This document shows positions 3,292 to 10,041 of a stretch of 10,041 nucleotides of DNA, piece by piece; position 1 is the stretch's first letter, and each line of letters begins with the position of its first letter. The notes below the pieces were generated by a model. The model made no database searches. It worked only from the letters and a program-made list of their open reading frames with translations, and had not been told where the DNA came from. The stretch comes from Fibrobacterota bacterium (GTDB lineage: Bacteria; Fibrobacterota; Fibrobacteria; UBA11236). Made by a program: the position numbers and the translations under genes. The stretch is from contig JAYUVP010000114.1 in the NCBI GenBank assembly GCA_043753995.1, positions 1-10,041 of the forward strand, given 5' to 3'.

Positions 3292-5025
3292 CTACTCCGT
3301 TCTCGGCTTTCCCGTTTTGTCGCAGGAATAAAAAGACTTCCAACCTGCTACGGGTTTTAGACCCTTGCCCTCCACCCAATCGCTCCAGGCGCAGGTGGGC
3401 ATGCAGCAGTCTTGCATGGTGGTGGTATGGTATTGATCATTCGGACCGGTAAAGGTTCCATTGGCTCCCGCTTGGGCCGGGGTTTGCACGGCAGGCAAGG
3501 GTAATGGCAAGGTTTCCTCTTGCAAGCGGCAGCCGGTGACGCGCGTTAGGTTTTCGGGGCATTGCACGCGCTTGGCGCGGACTTTCCAGTTTTGGTGGTA
3601 GAGCGATTCCACCTGATTGGTTTGCAGACAGGATTTACGGGTATCGGTGGTCACTTCGGCCGATACACTTTGGGCTTGGTTGCATTGTTGCGTAATGGTT
3701 TCTCGGCATTGCGCGGACTTTAACCCAGCGGCCGTAGGTGGCCACGCAGTTCCGGTGCAGACAGGGTAGCGCAGAAAGGAAATGCCTCCCGACCCCGGAT
3801 TTTGCCAGGGAAAACCTTGGTATAGGAATTCATTGAACTTCGTCGTATTGCCGAAGGCGGGGTCATTATAACAGGAGTTGAAGGCGCCATATCCACCGGC
3901 GCCCATAAAGATGTCGAAGCCTTTCGGGCCGCTGGCAGCGGTATTAAAGCTTTGCACCACCATGGCTTTGGGTTGCGGCAACTCAGGGAATTGCGGGGAA
4001 CTGGGCTCGGGAGTTTCGAAGATGAGTTGATAGCATTGGCAACAGCTGCTGCTATTGTTGTCCAAGCCGCCCACATCGGCGTCATGCCCTACCACACCGT
4101 ATTGAAAAGGGGGATTGCTTCCGTCACCCCAGCCATATTGGCGGGCATCGTCCTTGGTGGCTTGCGTCATGGCGGAGCTGTACATCATGAAGCGCGGACA
4201 GATGAAGTTTTTAGGCAGATCGCCTTTGGAAGGATCTTCGGGTGGGGAGCAGGAATTAGCCACTCGGCATTCCCCGCCGCAAGCGGAATTGCGATCTCCC
4301 GCGATGCAGCCCTTGGCATAGAATTGGTTCATGCAACCATTAGGAGGATTCAGTTTATAATCCGTCACGGAAGGATCAAGTGATAGTATGAATTGGATGC
4401 CACTCACCTGTCCCGCAGTCAAGACGAGGGTAGCAGGCAAGTAGCCGGCCTTCGAGGCGATGAGGGTGTCTCCCGTAGCTCCCATTTTCGCGGCGGCGCG
4501 AGTGGAGGACAACGGGCCTGCGAATACAAGCTCTCCGGTTTTCGAATGGCTCGACACTTGAAAGGGAAGGGAGGATTCCTCGACGCCGATGTGGGCTTTA
4601 ATGAGATAAAGCCCGGGCGACAATTTGTGCTGGGCTGGGTGGACTTGGTAATTCCCGGCATTCATCCTTTTGCTGACCAAAGTTTTGAGCTTCCGTCCTT
4701 CGGTGCTGTAAAGACCTATTTCGACGAATGAATTCAGGCCGACCACCGAATAGGACAGGACGTCCTGTTGCCATCGGAGGGGGCTGGCCTTCATGGCTCT
4801 CGGTTGCAGACCCGTCGGTATCAGGGTCCAACTTCCATCGGTCCCAGTGGTGGCTGTTTTGCCCGTGGGGGCATGGGTGACAAGAGCGCCCGCGAGCCCA
4901 GCCCCGGATGGGTCCTTGACGAAACCGCTGAGAGTTTGAGCCACGGCCCCTGCCGCTAGGAAAAGGGCCAGACCGCTGGCCAAAATCATTCGGGAAGGTA
5001 TTGTAAAGAGCGAAGCAAAAACCAA
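3292..5025 (-). CDS. Secreted glycoside hydrolase family 45-like endoglucanase (circularly permuted catalytic domain) with N-terminal Ig/carboxypeptidase-regulatory-like modules
   Basis: Signal peptide MILASGLALFLAAGAVA-Q (alternative ATG at 4989; the TTG at 5025 has GGGGGA upstream). GH45 motifs are SSCCQCYQLIF, KAMVVQSFNT, GFDIFMGAGGYGAFNSC, KRVQCPENLTRVTGCR and TTTMQDCCMPTCAW. The catalytic region is Cys-rich. Confidence 0.85.
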   Translation of the reverse strand: MVFASLFTIPSRMILASGLALFLAAGAVAQTLSGFVKDPSGAGLAGALVTHAPTGKTATTGTDGSWTLIPTGLQPRAMKASPLRWQQDVLSYSVVGLNSFVEIGLYSTEGRKLKTLVSKRMNAGNYQVHPAQHKLSPGLYLIKAHIGVEESSLPFQVSSHSKTGELVFAGPLSSTRAAAKMGATGDTLIASKAGYLPATLVLTAGQVSGIQFILSLDPSVTDYKLNPPNGCMNQFYAKGCIAGDRNSACGGECRVANSCSPPEDPSKGDLPKNFICPRFMMYSSAMTQATKDDARQYGWGDGSNPPFQYGVVGHDADVGGLDNNSSSCCQCYQLIFETPEPSSPQFPELPQPKAMVVQSFNTAASGPKGFDIFMGAGGYGAFNSCYNDPAFGNTTKFNEFLYQGFPWQNPGSGGISFLRYPVCTGTAWPPTAAGLKSAQCRETITQQCNQAQSVSAEVTTDTRKSCLQTNQVESLYHQNWKVRAKRVQCPENLTRVTGCRLQEETLPLPLPAVQTPAQAGANGTFTGPNDQYHTTTMQDCCMPTCAWSDWVEGKGLKPVAGWKSFYSCDKTGKPRTE

Positions 5026-5256: not shown

Positions 5257-6873
5257 ATGAGTCTACCTAATATATTAAGGGTCTTTTCCCGCTTGGCTAT
5301 ACACCGTAAGGTCTTGGCCATGGGCGGTCTTTTCTTAATAGCTTTTGTAATATTCGTATCCTTTTCTTTGAATACTTTCAATACGGTCAAGGTGCGAGGG
5401 CCCTATTATGCTGCTATAGTGCAAAGTAAGGATTTGATTGCGGATATCCTACCGCCTCCCGAATATTTGATTGAGTCGTACCTCAATATATTGGAATTGG
5501 CATATGAAAAGGATGCGACCCAATTGCCTAGGCTCATCGAAAAGAGTCAAAGCCTGCGAAAAGATTTTACAACTCGACATGATTTCTGGTTGGTTGATTT
5601 GCCTGAAGGCGAAATCAAAAATCTTTTAATGCAAAACGCCTACTCACCCGGCATGGAAATGCTGAAATTGCGAGACGATTCCTTTATACCCCTTATTCAA
5701 AAAGGGGATACCGCCGGTGCCAGAAAACTTGCACAAGGAGAACTCAAGGCAAAATACCAGGAGCATCGGGCGGCCATTGATCGCATCGTCAGCCTTAGTA
5801 ATGAAAAATACCTGGCCGATGAAAAGGCAGCGGACATTATCATTACTCGCCGCACCTGGATGCTTGCCGGCCTCGGAGTCGGAGTGGTGCTGGCTGTCTT
5901 AGCCCTCAGCGGTTTTGTGAGCAGCCAAATCAAGGCCATAATTGAGAACAGCATTGCCGCACTGAACCGCGTGGCGGAAGGTGATTTGACGGTCAAGATG
6001 AATAATCAAAACCTCGGCGAAGCCCAAGCGATGGACGCGGCAATAGAACGCGCCACACTTTCAGTACGCAACATTTTGAATGAGATCACAGAATGCTCAA
6101 CCAAGCTTTTGGATCGACTTGTCGATCTTAAATTAGTGAACGCGGAGTTGTCGCAATCCACCGCAACCACCCATACCAAGGCTCATACCTGCAACCAATC
6201 GGCTCAGTTGGTGGACGAGAACTTGCAAACCATCGCTTCAGCCTCACAAGAACTCCAGGCGACCATCACCGAAATCGCGAAACAAACCAATCATGCCACC
6301 TCTATTACGGACAAAGCGAAGGTTATGTCCCTTCAATCGAATCAATTGGTGAAGCATCTCAATGAAAGCAGCCAAAATATTGGCGGTATTTTGCAGTTAA
6401 TCAAAAGCATTTCTGAACAGACTAATTTACTGGCATTAAATGCCACGATAGAAGCCGCACGGGCTGGGGAAATGGGTAAAGGTTTTGCCGTTGTGGCGCA
6501 TGAAGTGAAAGAATTGGCCATGCAAAGTTCAAACGCCAGCGAGCAAGTCAGCGTCACCGTGCAATCGATTCAGGCAGATAGCAGCACGGTCATGGAAAGC
6601 ATTTCTAACATCCTTCAAATTATTGGCCAGATCAATGCCGTACAAGGTGAGGTTGCAAGCGCTGTCGAAGAGCAGACGGCAACCACGGCCGAAATCTCCC
6701 GTAATATTACCGAAGCAGCGCAAGGCAGCCGAGACATCACCTTAAGCATATCCGAGGTGGCGGGCTCGGCACAGAAGGCCAATGTCAGCCTCAGCCATAC
6801 CTTGACAGGTGCCAATCACCTTGGCGACATCGCGGGCGAACTAAAAGGACTAGTGAGTCGTTTTCGTATTTGA
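5257..6873 (+). CDS. Methyl-accepting chemotaxis protein (transmembrane chemoreceptor)
   Basis: TM1 [16 protein letters not shown]; helical periplasmic domain with [21 protein letters not shown]2 [25 protein letters not shown]-like [10 protein letters not shown]; conserved hairpin tip [37 protein letters not shown]; methylation-like AVEEQTATT. The start could instead be the ATG at 5320. Confidence 0.95.
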
Positions 6874-7191: not shown

Positions 7192-7893
7192 TTGCAAGTC
7201 GAACGTGTTCTCGATATTTTACGAGAAGTTTTCTCGAAGCTCGCTATCGAGGAGCCGTCTTTCGCGAATCCGCCGTCAAACATTTCGTCTGAAACAAGCT
7301 TAGATGCCCTGCATGTGACCGAGGCCAATGTGGGTGATTTCGCCCGCGAATTACGTTACCGCTTGGGCGGTACGGCTCTCAATGTCGAGCTCATGTACCT
7401 CATGCAAAAGGCCGTCCAGGCCACTTCATCGAATTTGAGCCATTACCATACCCTCGGCGATGTCGCCAAGCATATTCAGGCCAGCCTGCATCACGGCATA
7501 CCCAATCCCATGGTGGTCTATGTCGATGATGAGGAGGAAAACCTTTTCGTTTTCCGCCGCAAGTACGGCAAGCGTCTCAACCTCAAGACTTTTTCCGATC
7601 CGCTTGAAGCCTTGTCCTTCATCTCCCGAAGCCCCGAAACGGTATTGGTTTTAACCGATGAGGTGATGCCGGGCATGACGGGTAACCAGCTATGCGACGA
7701 GGCACACAAGACGCGGCCATTTCTCAAGTTCATACTCATCACGGGCAACCCCGCAGGCGACGATAATTTGTTGCATCGCTCCCTGCGCCATGGCCGCTTT
7801 TACGATTTCATCAACAAGCCACTCGATTTCGACGGCAAGGGCGAAGAGTATTTCGACACCATGAGCCGCGTCTTGTCGGGGGATTATTTCTAA
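7192..7893 (+). CDS. Response regulator: N-terminal ACP-like domain + C-terminal receiver (REC) domain (paralog 1)
   Basis: TTG start with GGAG RBS at 7181-7184. REC motifs are VVYVDDE, LVLTDEVMPGMTG (phospho-acceptor D156), FILITG and FINKP. The N-terminal ~100 aa resemble an ACP (VLDILREVF...ISSETSLDALHVTEA...TLGDVAKHI). No DNA-binding domain. Confidence 0.85.
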   Translation: MQVERVLDILREVFSKLAIEEPSFANPPSNISSETSLDALHVTEANVGDFARELRYRLGGTALNVELMYLMQKAVQATSSNLSHYHTLGDVAKHIQASLHHGIPNPMVVYVDDEEENLFVFRRKYGKRLNLKTFSDPLEALSFISRSPETVLVLTDEVMPGMTGNQLCDEAHKTRPFLKFILITGNPAGDDNLLHRSLRHGRFYDFINKPLDFDGKGEEYFDTMSRVLSGDYF

Positions 7894-7954
7894 ACGCGCG
7901 GAAACCCAAATCTTAGGGTAGACAGCCGCAAACATCCATCGGGAGATCTTTAGC

Positions 7955-9172
7955 ATGCAAGACCCATACTCCACAGGTGATCGAAAGCCGTCCACTGTGA
8001 ACGGCCCGACTTGGTTCGAAACCACTATGAACGAATACCTCGTGCGGTTTCGTGCCTATGAGCCGTTTCCCTTTGATCAACCGCCCGACACCCACAATTA
8101 TTTGAGCTTGCACCAAAACGACTACCTACGCTTGAGTGGACACCCCGAAGTCAACTACGCAAAAAATCAGTCCATTTCCAGGTCTGGGGGCGGTCCCATG
8201 GCCTCCATCACCTATGGTGGCGACACGGGCGAGCACCAGCAATTTCGGTTGGCCCTACAAAAGACATTGAATGTGGGCGACGTCATGCTCACGACAGCAG
8301 GCTGGACTGCCAATGTGGGCTTGGTGGAATCCCTTGCCTCACCCAATACTCCCGTATACCTCGACTACCAGGCGCATGCCTCCTTGTGGGATGGGGCCAA
8401 ATTGGCTGGCGCTAAAATGGTACCGGTGCGCCACAACTCGCCCGCCCACCTCGAACAACGCATCAAACGCTATGGCAAAGGCTTGGTATGCATCGACGCC
8501 TTTTACAGCACCGACGGCTGCGTGCCCGACTTGAAGCGCTATGTCGAAATTTGCGAGGCCTATGATTGCATGCTCATTCTCGACGAGGCCCATTCTTTCG
8601 GCATGATAGGTCCGAATGGCGGAGGGCTCGCGGTCGAACTCGGGCTGGAAACGCGAGTGCCCATACGCACGGTGAGCATGAGCAAGGCTTTGGGCGGCAA
8701 TGGCGGCTTCATCGCCGCCACCGAAGAGGTGGTCTGGTTTCTCAAGCACCGCGCCCGCTCGGTGGTCTTCAGCTCAAGCCCGTCGCCAGCCACTTCGGCA
8801 GGCTCGCTGGCCGCCCTGCAAATCGCCATTCGCGAGCCGGAGCGGGCTCGGAATTGCCTCGAAATGGGGGCCTTGCTGCGCAAATCTCTTATTGGACGAC
8901 AAATCGATCCCGGCCTCAGCGCAAGCCAGATCATTTCCCTGTATTTCGATCAAGACCCTTTGGCGGCGAAGTTTTACGGCTTGTTGCGCCAGCGGGGAAT
9001 TTTGGCTTCGGTATTCACGGCACCGGCTGTGCCACGCGACACCAGCTTGGCGCGCTTTTCCATCCACAGCGACACGACGCCCGAGGACATGGTCAAGCTC
9101 GCCGATGCCTCAGCCGAATGCCTGGCCATAATGGGAGTCAGGGCTACTCCCCCTTACAGTCTCCTCGATTGA
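7955..9172 (+). CDS. PLP-dependent alpha-oxoamine synthase family enzyme, CqsA/LqsA-like (putative alpha-hydroxyketone autoinducer synthase)
   Basis: Family motifs are NDYLRL, DEAHSFG and SMSKALGG (PLP lysine K244). CqsA-like segments are GWTANVGL, PNTPVYLDYQAHASLWDGA, RYGKGLVCIDAFYSTDG, SQIISL and SVFTAPA. The family call is firm; the CqsA-like subfamily call is moderate. Confidence 0.8.
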   Translation: MQDPYSTGDRKPSTVNGPTWFETTMNEYLVRFRAYEPFPFDQPPDTHNYLSLHQNDYLRLSGHPEVNYAKNQSISRSGGGPMASITYGGDTGEHQQFRLALQKTLNVGDVMLTTAGWTANVGLVESLASPNTPVYLDYQAHASLWDGAKLAGAKMVPVRHNSPAHLEQRIKRYGKGLVCIDAFYSTDGCVPDLKRYVEICEAYDCMLILDEAHSFGMIGPNGGGLAVELGLETRVPIRTVSMSKALGGNGGFIAATEEVVWFLKHRARSVVFSSSPSPATSAGSLAALQIAIREPERARNCLEMGALLRKSLIGRQIDPGLSASQIISLYFDQDPLAAKFYGLLRQRGILASVFTAPAVPRDTSLARFSIHSDTTPEDMVKLADASAECLAIMGVRATPPYSLLD

Positions 9173-9226
9173 ATGGCCACCTTATCCGCCATCGGCGCCA
9201 ACCTGTAGAATGAAACGGGAAAAAAC

Positions 9227-9898
9227 ATGAACAGCCAACAAGCCTATGCCATCCTTCGCGAAATCGTGGCGGCCCTGGCCGCGCGTGGGGAAACCACCAA
9301 GTTACTCCCCGAGGCCCCGCAACTCGAAAAAACCCTGCATGAGCAAGGGGTGGATCTCACCGCCTTTTCCGAACTCATCGAAGAGCTGACCCAGCGCTTT
9401 CACGGCAAGGATTTTCGCCTGAACGGTTATCTAATACCCGAGGAATACTATTACCTCACTACAGCCAAGCTTGTCGATGCGGTGGCTTTGGCATTCAAAG
9501 CTGGCACAAAAAACCCCTTGGTCGTCTATGTCGATGACGAGGAAGAGAACCTCTTCATTTTCAATCGCAAGTTCGGCAAGAAGCTGAATCTCAAGACCTT
9601 TGGCGACCCCCGCACTGCGCTCGAATATATCCGGAGCAGCGAGGAAGTCGGTTTAGTCGTGACCGACGAGGTCATGCCGGGCATGTCAGGAAATGAATTG
9701 TGCGACGCCGTGCACGCGACCAAGCCCCTGATGAAGTTCATCCTCATTACCGGCAATCCCAATAGCGACGGCGATCTTATGTACCGGGCCCTACGCAAAA
9801 ACCGTTTCTACGAATTCATCAATAAGCCCGTCGACTTTGATGGCAAGGGCGAGGAATACCTGAACCTCATCCAGGGCATTCTCGAATTCGATTGGTGA
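9227..9898 (+). CDS. Response regulator: N-terminal ACP-like domain + C-terminal receiver (REC) domain (paralog 2)
   Basis: REC motifs are VVYVDDE, LVVTDEVMPGMSG (D147), FILITG and FINKP. The N-terminal region AYAILREIV...EKTLHEQGVDLTAFSELIEELTQRF...LTTAKLVDAV follows the ACP helical pattern. Confidence 0.88.
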   Translation: MNSQQAYAILREIVAALAARGETTKLLPEAPQLEKTLHEQGVDLTAFSELIEELTQRFHGKDFRLNGYLIPEEYYYLTTAKLVDAVALAFKAGTKNPLVVYVDDEEENLFIFNRKFGKKLNLKTFGDPRTALEYIRSSEEVGLVVTDEVMPGMSGNELCDAVHATKPLMKFILITGNPNSDGDLMYRALRKNRFYEFINKPVDFDGKGEEYLNLIQGILEFDW

Positions 9899-9907
9899 GA
9901 AGGGGGT

Positions 9908-10041
9908 TTAGAGAGGCCCCTTGCGAGGAAATCGCAAGGCGAAGGTGCTGCCGACCCCGACCCGGGATTCTACCGAAAGGGCGCTGCCGTATTTCTTCAC
10001 AATCTCGCTAGCGATGGTGAGCCCGAGGCCGGTGCCCTTGC
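9908..10041 (-). CDS. Sensor histidine kinase, C-terminal end of the HATPase domain (partial; rest lies beyond the window)
   Basis: Manual translation of the minus strand from 10039 gives KGTGLGLTIASEIVKKYGSALSVESRVGVGSTFALRFPRKGPL*. This has the G2 box GTGLGL and terminal GxGSTF strand typical of HATPase_c; TAA at 9908-9910. Confidence 0.9.
   Translation of the reverse strand, partial: KGTGLGLTIASEIVKKYGSALSVESRVGVGSTFALRFPRKGPL

Follow-up and report, generated by a model that had tools for sequence, protein, structure and literature searches.

The alpha-hydroxyketone (AHK) systems of Vibrio (CqsA/CqsS) and Legionella (LqsA/LqsR/LqsS) link an enzyme of the alpha-oxoamine synthase family to a sensor kinase that perceives its product. 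In the receptors CqsS and LqsS an N-terminal six-helix sensor lies directly before the kinase core, while LqsR, a response regulator whose gene adjoins that of the autoinducer synthase, has a canonical receiver followed by its output domain. Carrier proteins are natural partners of alpha-oxoamine synthases. Dedicated acyl carrier proteins (ACPs) encoded beside bacterial SPT have been reported (PMC9386255).

In a 10,041-nt stretch of Fibrobacterota DNA (hereinafter the window, which is the entire contig C114), the original prediction recognized a related AHK circuit comprising a synthase between two response regulators and a convergent histidine kinase. Of this, we retain the proximity of the synthase to CqsA, the conserved neighborhood and the combination of an ACP-like domain with a receiver; in contrast, the synthase falls in a sister clade and the kinase is not of the CqsS/LqsS type. 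We posit, with about as much reason to expect confirmation as disproof, that the locus forms the central part of a lipid-signal island specific to Fibrobacterota, a variant of AHK-type signaling with a new kind of regulator. A search of the literature found no publication naming both CqsA and Fibrobacter.

Organization of the locus

Three genes follow each other on the plus strand: REC1 (7192..7893), coding for a 233-aa response regulator identified by its ORF and Pfam match and with orthologs of 53–75% identity in relatives; a gene for a 405-aa PLP-dependent alpha-oxoamine synthase (7955..9172), in which Pfam detects the Aminotran_1_2 domain at 6e-30; and REC2 (9227..9898), coding for a 223-aa response regulator. 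The ORF coordinates bear out the predicted co-oriented arrangement, with 61 nt separating REC1 from the synthase and 54 nt separating the synthase from REC2. The convergent kinase, likewise predicted, is present as an open frame on the minus strand (9908..10039) that ends 9 nt past REC2 and comprises the 43 C-terminal codons up to the contig end; as the window is a whole contig, the truncation of the kinase stems from the assembly. A gene for a methyl-accepting chemotaxis protein (5257..6873, plus strand), recognized by its ORF and a family search, lies 318 nt upstream of REC1, in a slot that in relatives is occupied by a cyclase gene. Within the window, Rfam yields zero families at gathering score, no promoter-like sites are detected, and terminator-like sites show no excess over shuffles. 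The search of other genomes that had been suggested for the REC–synthase–REC–kinase neighborhood recovers it in related genomes and metagenome contigs, and the arrangement is thus beyond what chance would produce.

The synthase belongs to a sister clade of CqsA

Several lines of evidence place the 405-aa enzyme near CqsA. Its top NCBIfam match is the AHK synthase model NF005526 (297.9 bits, versus 232.8 for bioF) and its best PDB match is CqsA (1e-54, versus 7e-45 for SPT). It has an alpha-oxoamine synthase fold, and its PLP lysine (K244; 8684–8686) and His/Asp/His set (H141, D210 and H213) are conserved and align with V. cholerae CqsA, to which the enzyme is ~36% identical by our own count from the alignment. 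Two quick-mode, midpoint-rooted trees (71 and 51 rows) jointly split the window clade and CqsA proper from the BioF-, KBL- and SPT-like rows with SH-aLRT of 99–100. Within this assemblage, the window clade (26 rows, support 99) is sister to CqsA proper (13 rows, support 98), and the same split is seen in the second tree. The sister-group tree took in Vibrio campbellii, Cupriavidus and annotated Streptomyces cqsA, and the named CqsA and CqsS references were taken from Vibrio chromosome 2 records.

However, the enzyme misses the curated equivalog cut-off of NF005526 (297.9 versus 428 bits). So do 19 window-clade proteins from our loci (269–323 bits), and a further member, L041, has no NF005526 match listed at E 1e-75; for comparison, L042, L044 and L045 score 575, 458 and 432 bits, respectively. 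On the evidence of its sequence, the enzyme is a member of a separate sister clade of 26–38 rows and lies outside the CqsA/LqsA family. The call of a CqsA/LqsA-like synthase hence holds as a statement of affinity, PDB, NCBIfam and the phylogeny that had been proposed as a check all setting the enzyme nearer to CqsA than to BioF, KBL or SPT, and fails as one of family membership. A housekeeping BioF/KBL role can be rejected, given that a separate BioF/KBL-like paralog is encoded on C64 and that the trees split the window enzyme off.

The genomic contexts of the clade also differ from those of CqsA and LqsA: the window synthase has no adjoining CqsS-type kinase, and in Gammaproteobacteria, Myxococcota and Acidobacteriota the other clade members belong to sensor-free gene clusters with the look of lipid biosynthesis, of the form FAAL-desaturase-ALDH-synthase-sulfotransferase-SDR or synthase-SDR-ACP-aminotransferase. 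Consequently, a signaling role does not follow from the fold. These clusters instead favor an alternative under which the locus encodes a regulated lipid or secondary-metabolite pathway, supplying a membrane or surface aminolipid precursor and tuned to an environmental cue by carrier-mimic regulators and a kinase, rather than cell–cell signaling. We consider this the best-surviving of the rival explanations, albeit an unlikely one.

The Fibrobacterota island and its six-helix cyclases

The wider island provides evidence both for and against that alternative. Across 21 genomes we identified 46 genes for ACP-REC proteins, of which 20 lie at most 200 bp and 31 within 2.5 kb from an alpha-oxoamine synthase gene; for 14, the DNA retrieved contains no synthase gene. 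The synthase adjacent to REC2 belongs to either the CqsA-like clade or an SPT/BioF-like clade (~29% identity), and tblastn identities of 25–27% suggest a third type. Judging by these sequence relationships, the pairing of an alpha-oxoamine synthase with REC2 persists across at least two, and probably three, synthase clades. Such interchangeability of the synthase is consistent with an aminolipid pathway, as is the continuation of the island with two FeeM-like N-acyl amino acid synthase homologs and a haem-oxygenase-like di-iron enzyme. Arguing against it, the Fibrobacterota synthases have no SDR, sulfotransferase or aminotransferase genes beside them, and the islands are rich in signaling genes, including cyclases that share a domain with the CAI-1 receptor.

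These class III nucleotide cyclases, each with a six-helix membrane anchor, are present in one or two copies in the islands of relatives. Two "unknown proteins" of 626 and 535 aa, which in L018 and L046 seem to separate REC1 from the synthase, proved to be shadow ORFs lying antisense to a second cyclase gene. The genome of the window encodes three six-helix cyclases, all on contigs (C283, C235 and C191) other than that of the synthase, and they were hence out of sight of the original prediction; their genes have unrelated neighbors, with no synthase, ACP-REC or kinase gene adjoining any of them.

A profile of the cyclase anchor matches the N-terminus of the hybrid kinase encoded beside cqsA in Vibrio campbellii (36.7 bits) and that of its Cupriavidus counterpart (44.4 bits), with other ORFs at these loci scoring below 0, in hmmsearch runs with --max, as default filters drop the match at the bias filter. 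The complementary profile–profile comparison with the CqsS receptor (hhalign) returned 99.6% with E 1.4e-23 over 171 columns, and a reciprocal phmmer search recovered 12 cyclases. When cyclase anchors are aligned individually to a CqsS-like kinase with BLASTP, the matches are weak (E 0.001 and 0.17); the anchor profile finds nothing among PDB sequences, and NCBIfam returns no CqsS-specific model for the kinases and cyclases tested. On the strength of the profiles, the cyclase anchor and the CqsS receptor are homologous. Islands of relatives contain the six-helix sensor domain of CqsS and LqsS, as do three proteins of this genome, but here it is joined to the catalytic domain of a class III cyclase instead of a kinase core, and the synthase-adjacent kinase has a GAF-based input. 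Beltz et al. (2016) engineered a fusion of this kind between receptor and cyclase, and the natural CqsS cluster in their work contained only kinases (PMC4821796).

Response regulators with a putative carrier-mimic output domain

The Pfam Response_reg domain is confined to the C-terminal halves of the two regulators (residues 108–213 of REC1 and 99–204 of REC2), with PF00072 scores of 32.9 and 44.7 bits against a cut-off of 30.2 bits. The receiver of REC1 shows the acidic pair D112/D113, the phospho-acceptor D156 (7657–7659), T184 and K209; the equivalent residues of REC2 are D103/D104, D147 (9665–9667), T175 and K200, which all 40 family members compared share without exception. By these sequence features, both are canonical receivers, a likeness that they share with LqsR. 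However, the receiver of LqsR precedes its output domain, whereas those of REC1 and REC2 are C-terminal, and neither protein has the LqsR output domain. LqsR, at rank 7 among the structural matches, is matched over its receiver only (6sy9). Furthermore, in contrast to LqsR, there are here two paralogs with an ACP-fold output domain, which are predicted to act on the synthase itself.

This N-terminal domain spans approximately 7192–7509 in REC1, which is of a type with a 9-residue insert, and residues 1–97 (9227–9517) in REC2. Its profile matches the NodF ACP over the full length (E 0.0013), and its AF2 model (pLDDT 89.2) aligns with AcpM over 81 of 82 residues (VIA-align Z 9.9, rmsd 2.3 Å), carrier proteins making up nearly all of the best 50 matches listed. 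The structure and the NodF match together indicate the four-helix carrier fold (PF00550), vindicating the initial ACP-like call. The PF00550 PP-binding model itself scores 12.5–15.2 bits against a threshold of 20.8 in four of seven N-domains and has no match in the other three. Foldseek with the N-domain alone finds nothing at E 0.001 or better, with carrier proteins as its top rows, and with the whole REC2 model retrieves receiver domains only.

The position of the phosphopantetheine-accepting serine of the DSL motif is filled by L, I, V, Q, F, E, D, K, M or P, with S in none of 23 aligned sequences or anywhere in the 40-row alignment, and the 23-sequence alignment contains no other invariant Ser or Thr in the domain. 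Hence, the domain cannot carry an acyl chain, and we reject a genuine acyl carrier. It resembles the dedicated ACPs mentioned above in having a four-helix carrier fold encoded next to an alpha-oxoamine synthase and in its predicted docking via helix II, but differs in the missing serine and in being fused to a receiver (PMC9386255). The literature searched contains no description of the ACP-like + REC architecture, in agreement with the original prediction, which saw no counterpart to it in the Vibrio and Legionella systems.

Predicted docking of REC2 on the synthase

Models of the REC2 N-domain with the synthase dimer score 0.75, 0.75 and 0.74, as against 0.00 for the best control. Among solved complexes, 116 out of 157 pass the mark for docking, and among mismatched pairs 2 out of 215; our job, using a dimer and our own alignments, lies beyond the calibration of the tool. 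At least 82% of contacts recur between runs, with a partner pLDDT of at least 83. The modeled interface comprises residues 44–48 (including the serine-equivalent position) and 64–76 of REC2, and residues 138–165 and the 356–362 loop of the synthase. Conservation at two of these synthase positions, M155 and D362, is restricted to those Fibrobacterota enzymes that have a REC2 neighbor. These models point to the ACP-like domain probably docking at the substrate entrance of the synthase. Solved structures include many carrier-protein/enzyme complexes, and the pass may therefore partly reflect likeness to them. The 9-residue insert of REC1 lies within the predicted interface region, and REC1 may bind another partner.

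One could instead regard the ACP-like domain as a mere small helical module for dimerization or partner binding, with the regulators targeting cyclases or other proteins and their adjacency to the synthase reflecting co-regulation only. An automated count places 6 of 15 REC1-type genes at a distance of 8–273 nt from a cyclase gene, the 14 family members without a nearby synthase fit such a view, and the middling structural scores are typical of small helical domains. Yet the sequence profile and the fold both indicate carrier proteins specifically, these being the proteins that naturally partner alpha-oxoamine synthases and, as dedicated ACPs, adjoin bacterial SPT; moreover, the synthase–REC2 pairing outlasts the exchange of synthase clades and the docking model passes its controls. 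We thus regard this explanation as improbable.

The convergent histidine kinase

The 43-codon tail carries the G2-box and C-terminal signature of histidine kinases and is 64–78% identical to the C-termini of ~730-aa GAF histidine kinases convergent to REC2 in relatives. Such a kinase ends 9–59 nt past REC2 in the window and seven other loci (L016, L017, L018, L064, L151, L154 and L159), and 69 nt past it in L065. On contig C85 of the same genome, an orthologous GAF kinase, corresponding to residues 12–642 of a 729-aa relative, runs off the contig end; this fragment and the tail on C114 are probably parts of one gene, with about 44 codons expected to be missing between them. The orthologs (L018 and C85) combine a ~190-aa cytoplasmic N-domain, two membrane helices and GAF, HisKA and HATPase domains, and have no six-helix sensor before the kinase core, contradicting the expectation of a CqsS/LqsS-like sensor. 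A canonical CqsA/CqsS or LqsA/LqsS/LqsR circuit, with the convergent kinase as autoinducer receptor and REC1 and REC2 as LqsR-like regulators of targets other than the synthase, would accord with CqsA being the nearest characterized family, the conserved kinase position and the rank of LqsR among receiver matches, but is rendered very improbable by this kinase architecture, by the reversed domain order relative to LqsR with a match limited to the receiver, and by the placement of the enzyme outside the CqsA clade.

Proposed mechanism

Returning to the lipid-signal island, we propose that the synthase, as its family suggests, would condense an amino acid with a fatty acyl thioester, yielding a molecule of the alpha-aminoketone or alpha-hydroxyketone type. 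REC1 and REC2 would be phospho-accepting regulators whose output domain is an ACP unable to carry an acyl chain. The carrier mimic of at least REC2 is predicted to present its helix II face to the carrier/CoA entrance of the synthase dimer, and with REC2 docked there, the phosphorylation state of its receiver would gate synthesis. The conserved position of the convergent GAF kinase makes it the likely phosphodonor, and the CqsS-type six-helix cyclases are likely sensors of the lipid product. More speculatively, the cyclic nucleotide that they produce could be read by the GAF domain of the kinase, giving a feedback loop. The complete circuit, from synthase via signal, CqsS-receptor/cyclase fusions, cyclic nucleotide and GAF kinase to two regulators that plug the carrier entrance of the synthase, is a tentative proposal that we would not presently expect to hold in full. 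Counting against the island reading itself are the separation of all cyclases from the synthase in this genome and the ACP-REC genes that lack a synthase.

Significance

Whether the six-helix anchors of adenylyl cyclases are ligand receptors was an open question in the 2016 work on artificial CqsS-cyclase chimeras (PMC4821796), and a ligand-receptor role for cyclase membrane anchors is still treated as open in the relevant part of a 2025 review (PMC12414865). This could be tested in a native setting with the natural fusions of a CqsS-type receptor to a class III cyclase that are encoded beside a CqsA-like synthase. A response regulator with a dead ACP as output domain is a new architecture and, if the docking model is true, it would represent a new mode of two-component regulation in which an enzyme is controlled directly via mimicry of its substrate carrier. 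Were the full loop true, it would combine feedback by such mimicry with proof, from a natural system, that cyclases use their six-helix anchors as ligand receptors. The locus also extends the candidates for AHK-type signaling to Fibrobacterota, a phylum of fiber degraders.

The window locus and its conserved island

The genome holding the window spans 5.2 Mb in 356 contigs, with contig C114 being the entire 10,041-bp window. All three co-oriented ORFs, and the open frame converging on them, lie exactly where the original prediction had placed them: REC1 (7192–7893, + strand; 233 aa), the synthase (7955–9172, +; 405 aa), REC2 (9227–9898, +; 223 aa) and the tail of a kinase (9908–10039, −), of which the window contains only 43 codons, separated by gaps of 61, 54 and 9 nt, respectively. 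Pfam detects Response_reg in the C-terminal half of both REC proteins and Aminotran_1_2 in the synthase. The named relatives of the window proteins come from Fibrobacteria or Fibrobacterota MAGs. Elsewhere in the window, a 577-aa secreted protein (3292–5025, −) combines CarboxypepD_reg with a GH45 match right at the threshold (27.1 bits, cut-off 27), consistent with a fibre-degrading host.

We mapped the DNA around family members in 21 published genomes and in metagenome and species-genome matches, identifying neighbors by tblastn. The REC1/synthase/REC2/kinase order, put forward earlier as a neighborhood to be sought in other genomes, indeed recurs in Fibrobacterota as part of a larger island: a cyclase (−), REC1 (+), a second cyclase (−), an α-oxoamine synthase (+), REC2 (+), a GAF histidine kinase (−), and two FeeM-like proteins flanking a haem-oxygenase-like di-iron protein. 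In the window, a chemoreceptor gene occupies the place of a cyclase in the relatives.

A receiver fused to a carrier fold without its serine

REC1 and REC2 are paralogs (45% identical) and the only members in this genome of a family, hereinafter ACP-REC, which couples an ACP-like N-domain to a C-terminal receiver. The acidic pair, phospho-acceptor aspartate, threonine and lysine of the receiver are retained in all 40 aligned members. Several lines of evidence bear out the earlier description of the N-terminal 97–106 residues as ACP-like. Four of the seven N-domains searched show sub-threshold matches to Pfam PP-binding (12.5–15.2 bits versus the 20.8-bit cut-off), with no such match for both window proteins and one relative. 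A profile of 23 N-domains gives a full-length match to the acyl carrier protein NodF (E = 0.0013), and its remaining weak matches are mostly carrier proteins. An AlphaFold model of the REC N-domain (pLDDT 89.2, pTM 0.78) superimposes on AcpM and other carrier proteins with Z-scores of up to 9.9 (rmsd 2.3 Å over 81 of 82 residues), and carrier proteins fill nearly all of the 50 structural matches shown. At the phosphopantetheine-serine motif, REC2-type proteins display G-x-D-(L/I/F/V/Q/M) and REC1-type proteins H-(V/I)-(T/S/Q)-(E/D/K); none of the aligned ACP-REC sequences has a serine at the attachment position, and the alignment offers no other invariant Ser or Thr in the N-domain. Hence, the ACP-REC N-domain is a carrier protein unable to carry.

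The family comprises 330 proteins with E ≤ 0.001 among 1334 candidates, with all named members being from Fibrobacteria, and occurs in 22 of 296 genomes sampled from the phylum, a tally including one unpublished genome (G021) used nowhere else. We found no paper combining the terms "acyl carrier protein-like", "response regulator" and "receiver domain".

The synthase is a sister of CqsA

The top NCBIfam match of the 405-aa enzyme is NF005526, the α-hydroxyketone autoinducer synthase model, at 297.9 bits (below the 428-bit cut-off), followed by bioF (232.8 bits) and SPT (198.1 bits). Its closest solved relatives are Vibrio cholerae CqsA structures (E = 1e-54, versus 7e-45 for SPT), and its PLP lysine and His/Asp/His set align with those of CqsA. 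A word-indexed search yielded 355 homologs with E ≤ 0.001 among 5316 candidates, many of which bear the JGI name "CAI-1 autoinducer synthase". Upon scoring 37 homologs drawn from 48 genome loci with NF005526, 19 proteins of the window group obtained 269–323 bits and three proteobacterial proteins 575, 458 and 432 bits; a further window-group member, L041, gave no match within the E = 1e-75 reporting limit.

Two quick-mode trees recovered three clean groups. The first omitted three partial sequences (L020, L028, L052); the second, with near-duplicates thinned, comprised 51 sequences, including CqsA homologs of Vibrio campbellii and Cupriavidus, an annotated Streptomyces cqsA and two annotated Kbl proteins. 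In the latter, the window clade (26 sequences, SH-aLRT 99) and CqsA proper (13, SH-aLRT 98) are jointly opposed to a BioF/KBL/SPT-like group (12, SH-aLRT 100), both trees being midpoint-rooted without an ALAS or proteobacterial SPT reference. Because of this three-group topology, the proposed CqsA/LqsA-like identity stands insofar as the enzyme separates from BioF/KBL/SPT, but it is a sister of CqsA rather than a member.

The REC2–synthase pairing

Twenty of 46 ACP-REC genes lie <200 bp from a synthase gene (18 REC2-type genes and the REC1 genes of the window and locus L011) and 31 within 2.5 kb; 14 have no synthase in the fetched flanks, some of them at contig ends. A CqsA-like synthase adjoins REC2 in the window and in L011, L012, L016–L018, L020, L021, L064, L154 and L159–L161. 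In L145–L150, L152, L156, L065 and L069, the place beside REC2 is taken by a second synthase type from an unrelated clade, which is 29% identical to the window enzyme and scores best with the SPT and BioF models. Going by tblastn identities of 25–27% to the second, there appears to be a third type in L155, L158, L067 and L070. L011 additionally retains a C-terminal remnant (173 aa, 11838–12359) of a second-type synthase between REC2 and a third ACP-REC paralog, left over from exchange or decay of a synthase within the island. The pairing outlasts a change of enzyme clade, which speaks for the carrier-mimic regulator working with α-oxoamine synthases as such. In the Chitinivibrionales loci L021 and L160, genes for a fatty acyl-AMP ligase-like enzyme, a radical SAM enzyme and a six-helix cyclase precede the synthase–REC2 pair, which hints at a modified acyl substrate in this lineage.

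At 41–49% identity to REC2, a third and more distant ACP-REC subgroup (L153, L157, L164–L168) lacks synthases, kinases and cyclases within ~8 kb. The records assign L016 and L017 to Pseudomonadota and Polyangia MAGs; their synthase, REC2 and kinase genes are 75–82% identical to those of the window, and they nest within the Fibrobacteria clade. These contigs were probably binned wrongly.

Modeling of a synthase dimer with the REC2 N-domain as partner supports binding between them: three runs scored 0.75, 0.75 and 0.74 against 0.00 for the best control. Of 157 solved complexes, 116 reach the mark applied, as do 2 of 215 mismatched pairs; the use of a dimer and self-made alignments places this job outside the tool's calibration. 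Contacts agreed between runs by at least 82%, and partner pLDDT was at least 83; resemblance to solved carrier–enzyme complexes may contribute to the score. On the partner, the predicted interface takes in the beginning of helix II with the serine-equivalent residue 44, and also residues 64–76; on the synthase, it comprises residues 138–165, just past the PLP-stacking His141, and the 356–362 loop. Within it, position 155 is M/I/L/P in 15 Fibrobacterota enzymes versus K/R in other clade members, and position 362 is D or N versus G/Y; conservation of these positions is confined to the 15 Fibrobacterota enzymes compared. REC1-type proteins have a 9-residue insert within the partner's interface segment, and their target may thus differ.

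The convergent kinase and the adjoining operon

In relatives, the convergent kinase (~730 aa) shows a cytoplasmic N-domain of ~190 aa, two hydrophobic helices, GAF, a weak HisKA match and HATPase_c, and its core resembles AtoS/NtrB-type kinases. These orthologs thus have two helices and a GAF domain instead of the CqsS/LqsS-type sensor envisaged in the original prediction. Contig C85 of the same genome terminates within a kinase ortholog (58% identity over residues 12–642 of a 729-aa relative); the FeeM-like, di-iron and FeeM-like genes known from relatives precede it. As the 43-codon tail in the window corresponds to the last kinase residues, C85 very probably continues C114 across a gap of ~44 codons. 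In the C85 operon (L172, 469–4511, −), a 267-aa haem-oxygenase-like di-iron enzyme is encoded between two long FeeM-like N-acyl amino acid synthase homologs of 523 and 616 aa. The operon diverges from the GAF kinase and is conserved in the relatives' islands.

A CqsS-type receptor domain on cyclases

The island cyclases (~505–595 aa) unite an N-terminal polytopic membrane domain of ~200 aa, over which Pfam reports no family, with a Guanylate_cyc domain. A profile of 18 such anchors matched 419 proteins with E ≤ 0.001 in 1.84 billion representatives; by local HMMs, 72 of the best 150 are histidine kinases and 29 are cyclases, the rest being 29 short fragments and 20 others. Pfam confirmed hybrid kinases, one GGDEF fusion and two SpoIIE fusions among the matches. 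P0376, P0378 and P0380 are the proteins joining the six-helix domain to a SpoIIE (PP2C) phosphatase or GGDEF. Such fusions indicate that the CqsS-type six-helix domain is a modular sensor without a Pfam family.

The profile also matches, over its positions 6–145, an unannotated 690-aa hybrid kinase on Vibrio campbellii chromosome 2 (36.7 bits, E = 1.9e-13 for one sequence), which is convergent to the CqsA homolog and which, by position and architecture, we take to be CqsS. The Cupriavidus counterpart scores 44.4 bits, and the remaining ten ORFs of the two loci score below 0. In the reverse search, the N-terminal 185 residues of the Vibrio kinase matched 87 of these best 150 representatives, including 12 cyclases (best 7e-16). 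Profile–profile comparison of cyclase anchor and kinase sensor gave 99.6% probability (E = 1.4e-23, 171 columns), not fully independently, since the 18 template kinase representatives were found via the cyclase profile. The island cyclases are natural CqsS-receptor/cyclase fusions. Beltz et al. 2016 (PMC4821796), the only paper found for "CqsS-like" with "cyclase", describe an artificial fusion of this kind and a survey whose CqsS-type cluster contains only kinases, with remote local matches to cyclase anchors.

The window's own genome encodes three six-helix cyclases (on C283, C235 and C191), all of them away from the synthase. In relatives, the second cyclase gene is overlapped on the other strand by long antisense ORFs (L018 7495–9375, +, 626 aa; L046 3154–4761, +, 535 aa), whose conservation suffices for tblastn matches in several genomes and which mislead simple ORF pickers.

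Signaling or lipid biosynthesis

Computation shows a conserved gene order, the clade of the enzyme, intact receivers, a serine-less ACP fold and a CqsS-type anchor on the cyclases of the island, and it predicts docking in a model run against controls. We propose that the synthase would make an aminoketone- or hydroxyketone-type lipid, that the GAF kinase would phosphorylate REC1 and REC2, and that REC2 would gate the synthase. More speculatively, the cyclases might sense the synthase product and the GAF domain of the kinase might read a nucleotide made by them.

The main rival is regulated lipid biosynthesis without cell–cell signaling, favored by the FeeM-like genes and by the contexts of the window clade in other phyla. 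In Gammaproteobacteria (L024, L031, L039; L029, L034 and L037 by gene sizes), the synthase sits in a conserved co-oriented cluster coding for a fatty acyl-AMP ligase, fatty acid desaturase, aldehyde dehydrogenase, synthase, sulfotransferase, DUF1254/DUF1214 protein and SDR, in that order, with an APS kinase added in L031. This looks like a hitherto undescribed route to a sulfated aminolipid; a literature search for such a cluster retrieved nothing fitting. In Myxococcota (Citreicoccus inhibens) and Acidobacteriota (L023, L026, L043), an SDR and a ~965-aa protein with a class III aminotransferase domain come after the synthase, and the L023 cluster has a true ACP (PP-binding, 1.5e-16). These clusters look like lipid or natural-product pathways, and those examined in the three phyla contain no sensor; therefore, the fold alone is insufficient for calling the Fibrobacteria enzyme an autoinducer synthase.

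The known distribution of cqsA/cqsS comprises Legionellaceae, Vibrionaceae, Burkholderiaceae, Chlorobiaceae and Oxalobacteraceae (PMC5289986; PMC8023197), and no paper with both "CqsA" and "Fibrobacter" was found outside subscription barriers. We file the locus under synthase-plus-sensor signaling of the α-hydroxyketone type as the known kind, from which it departs by a sister-clade synthase, a new regulator architecture and a receptor domain moved onto cyclases.
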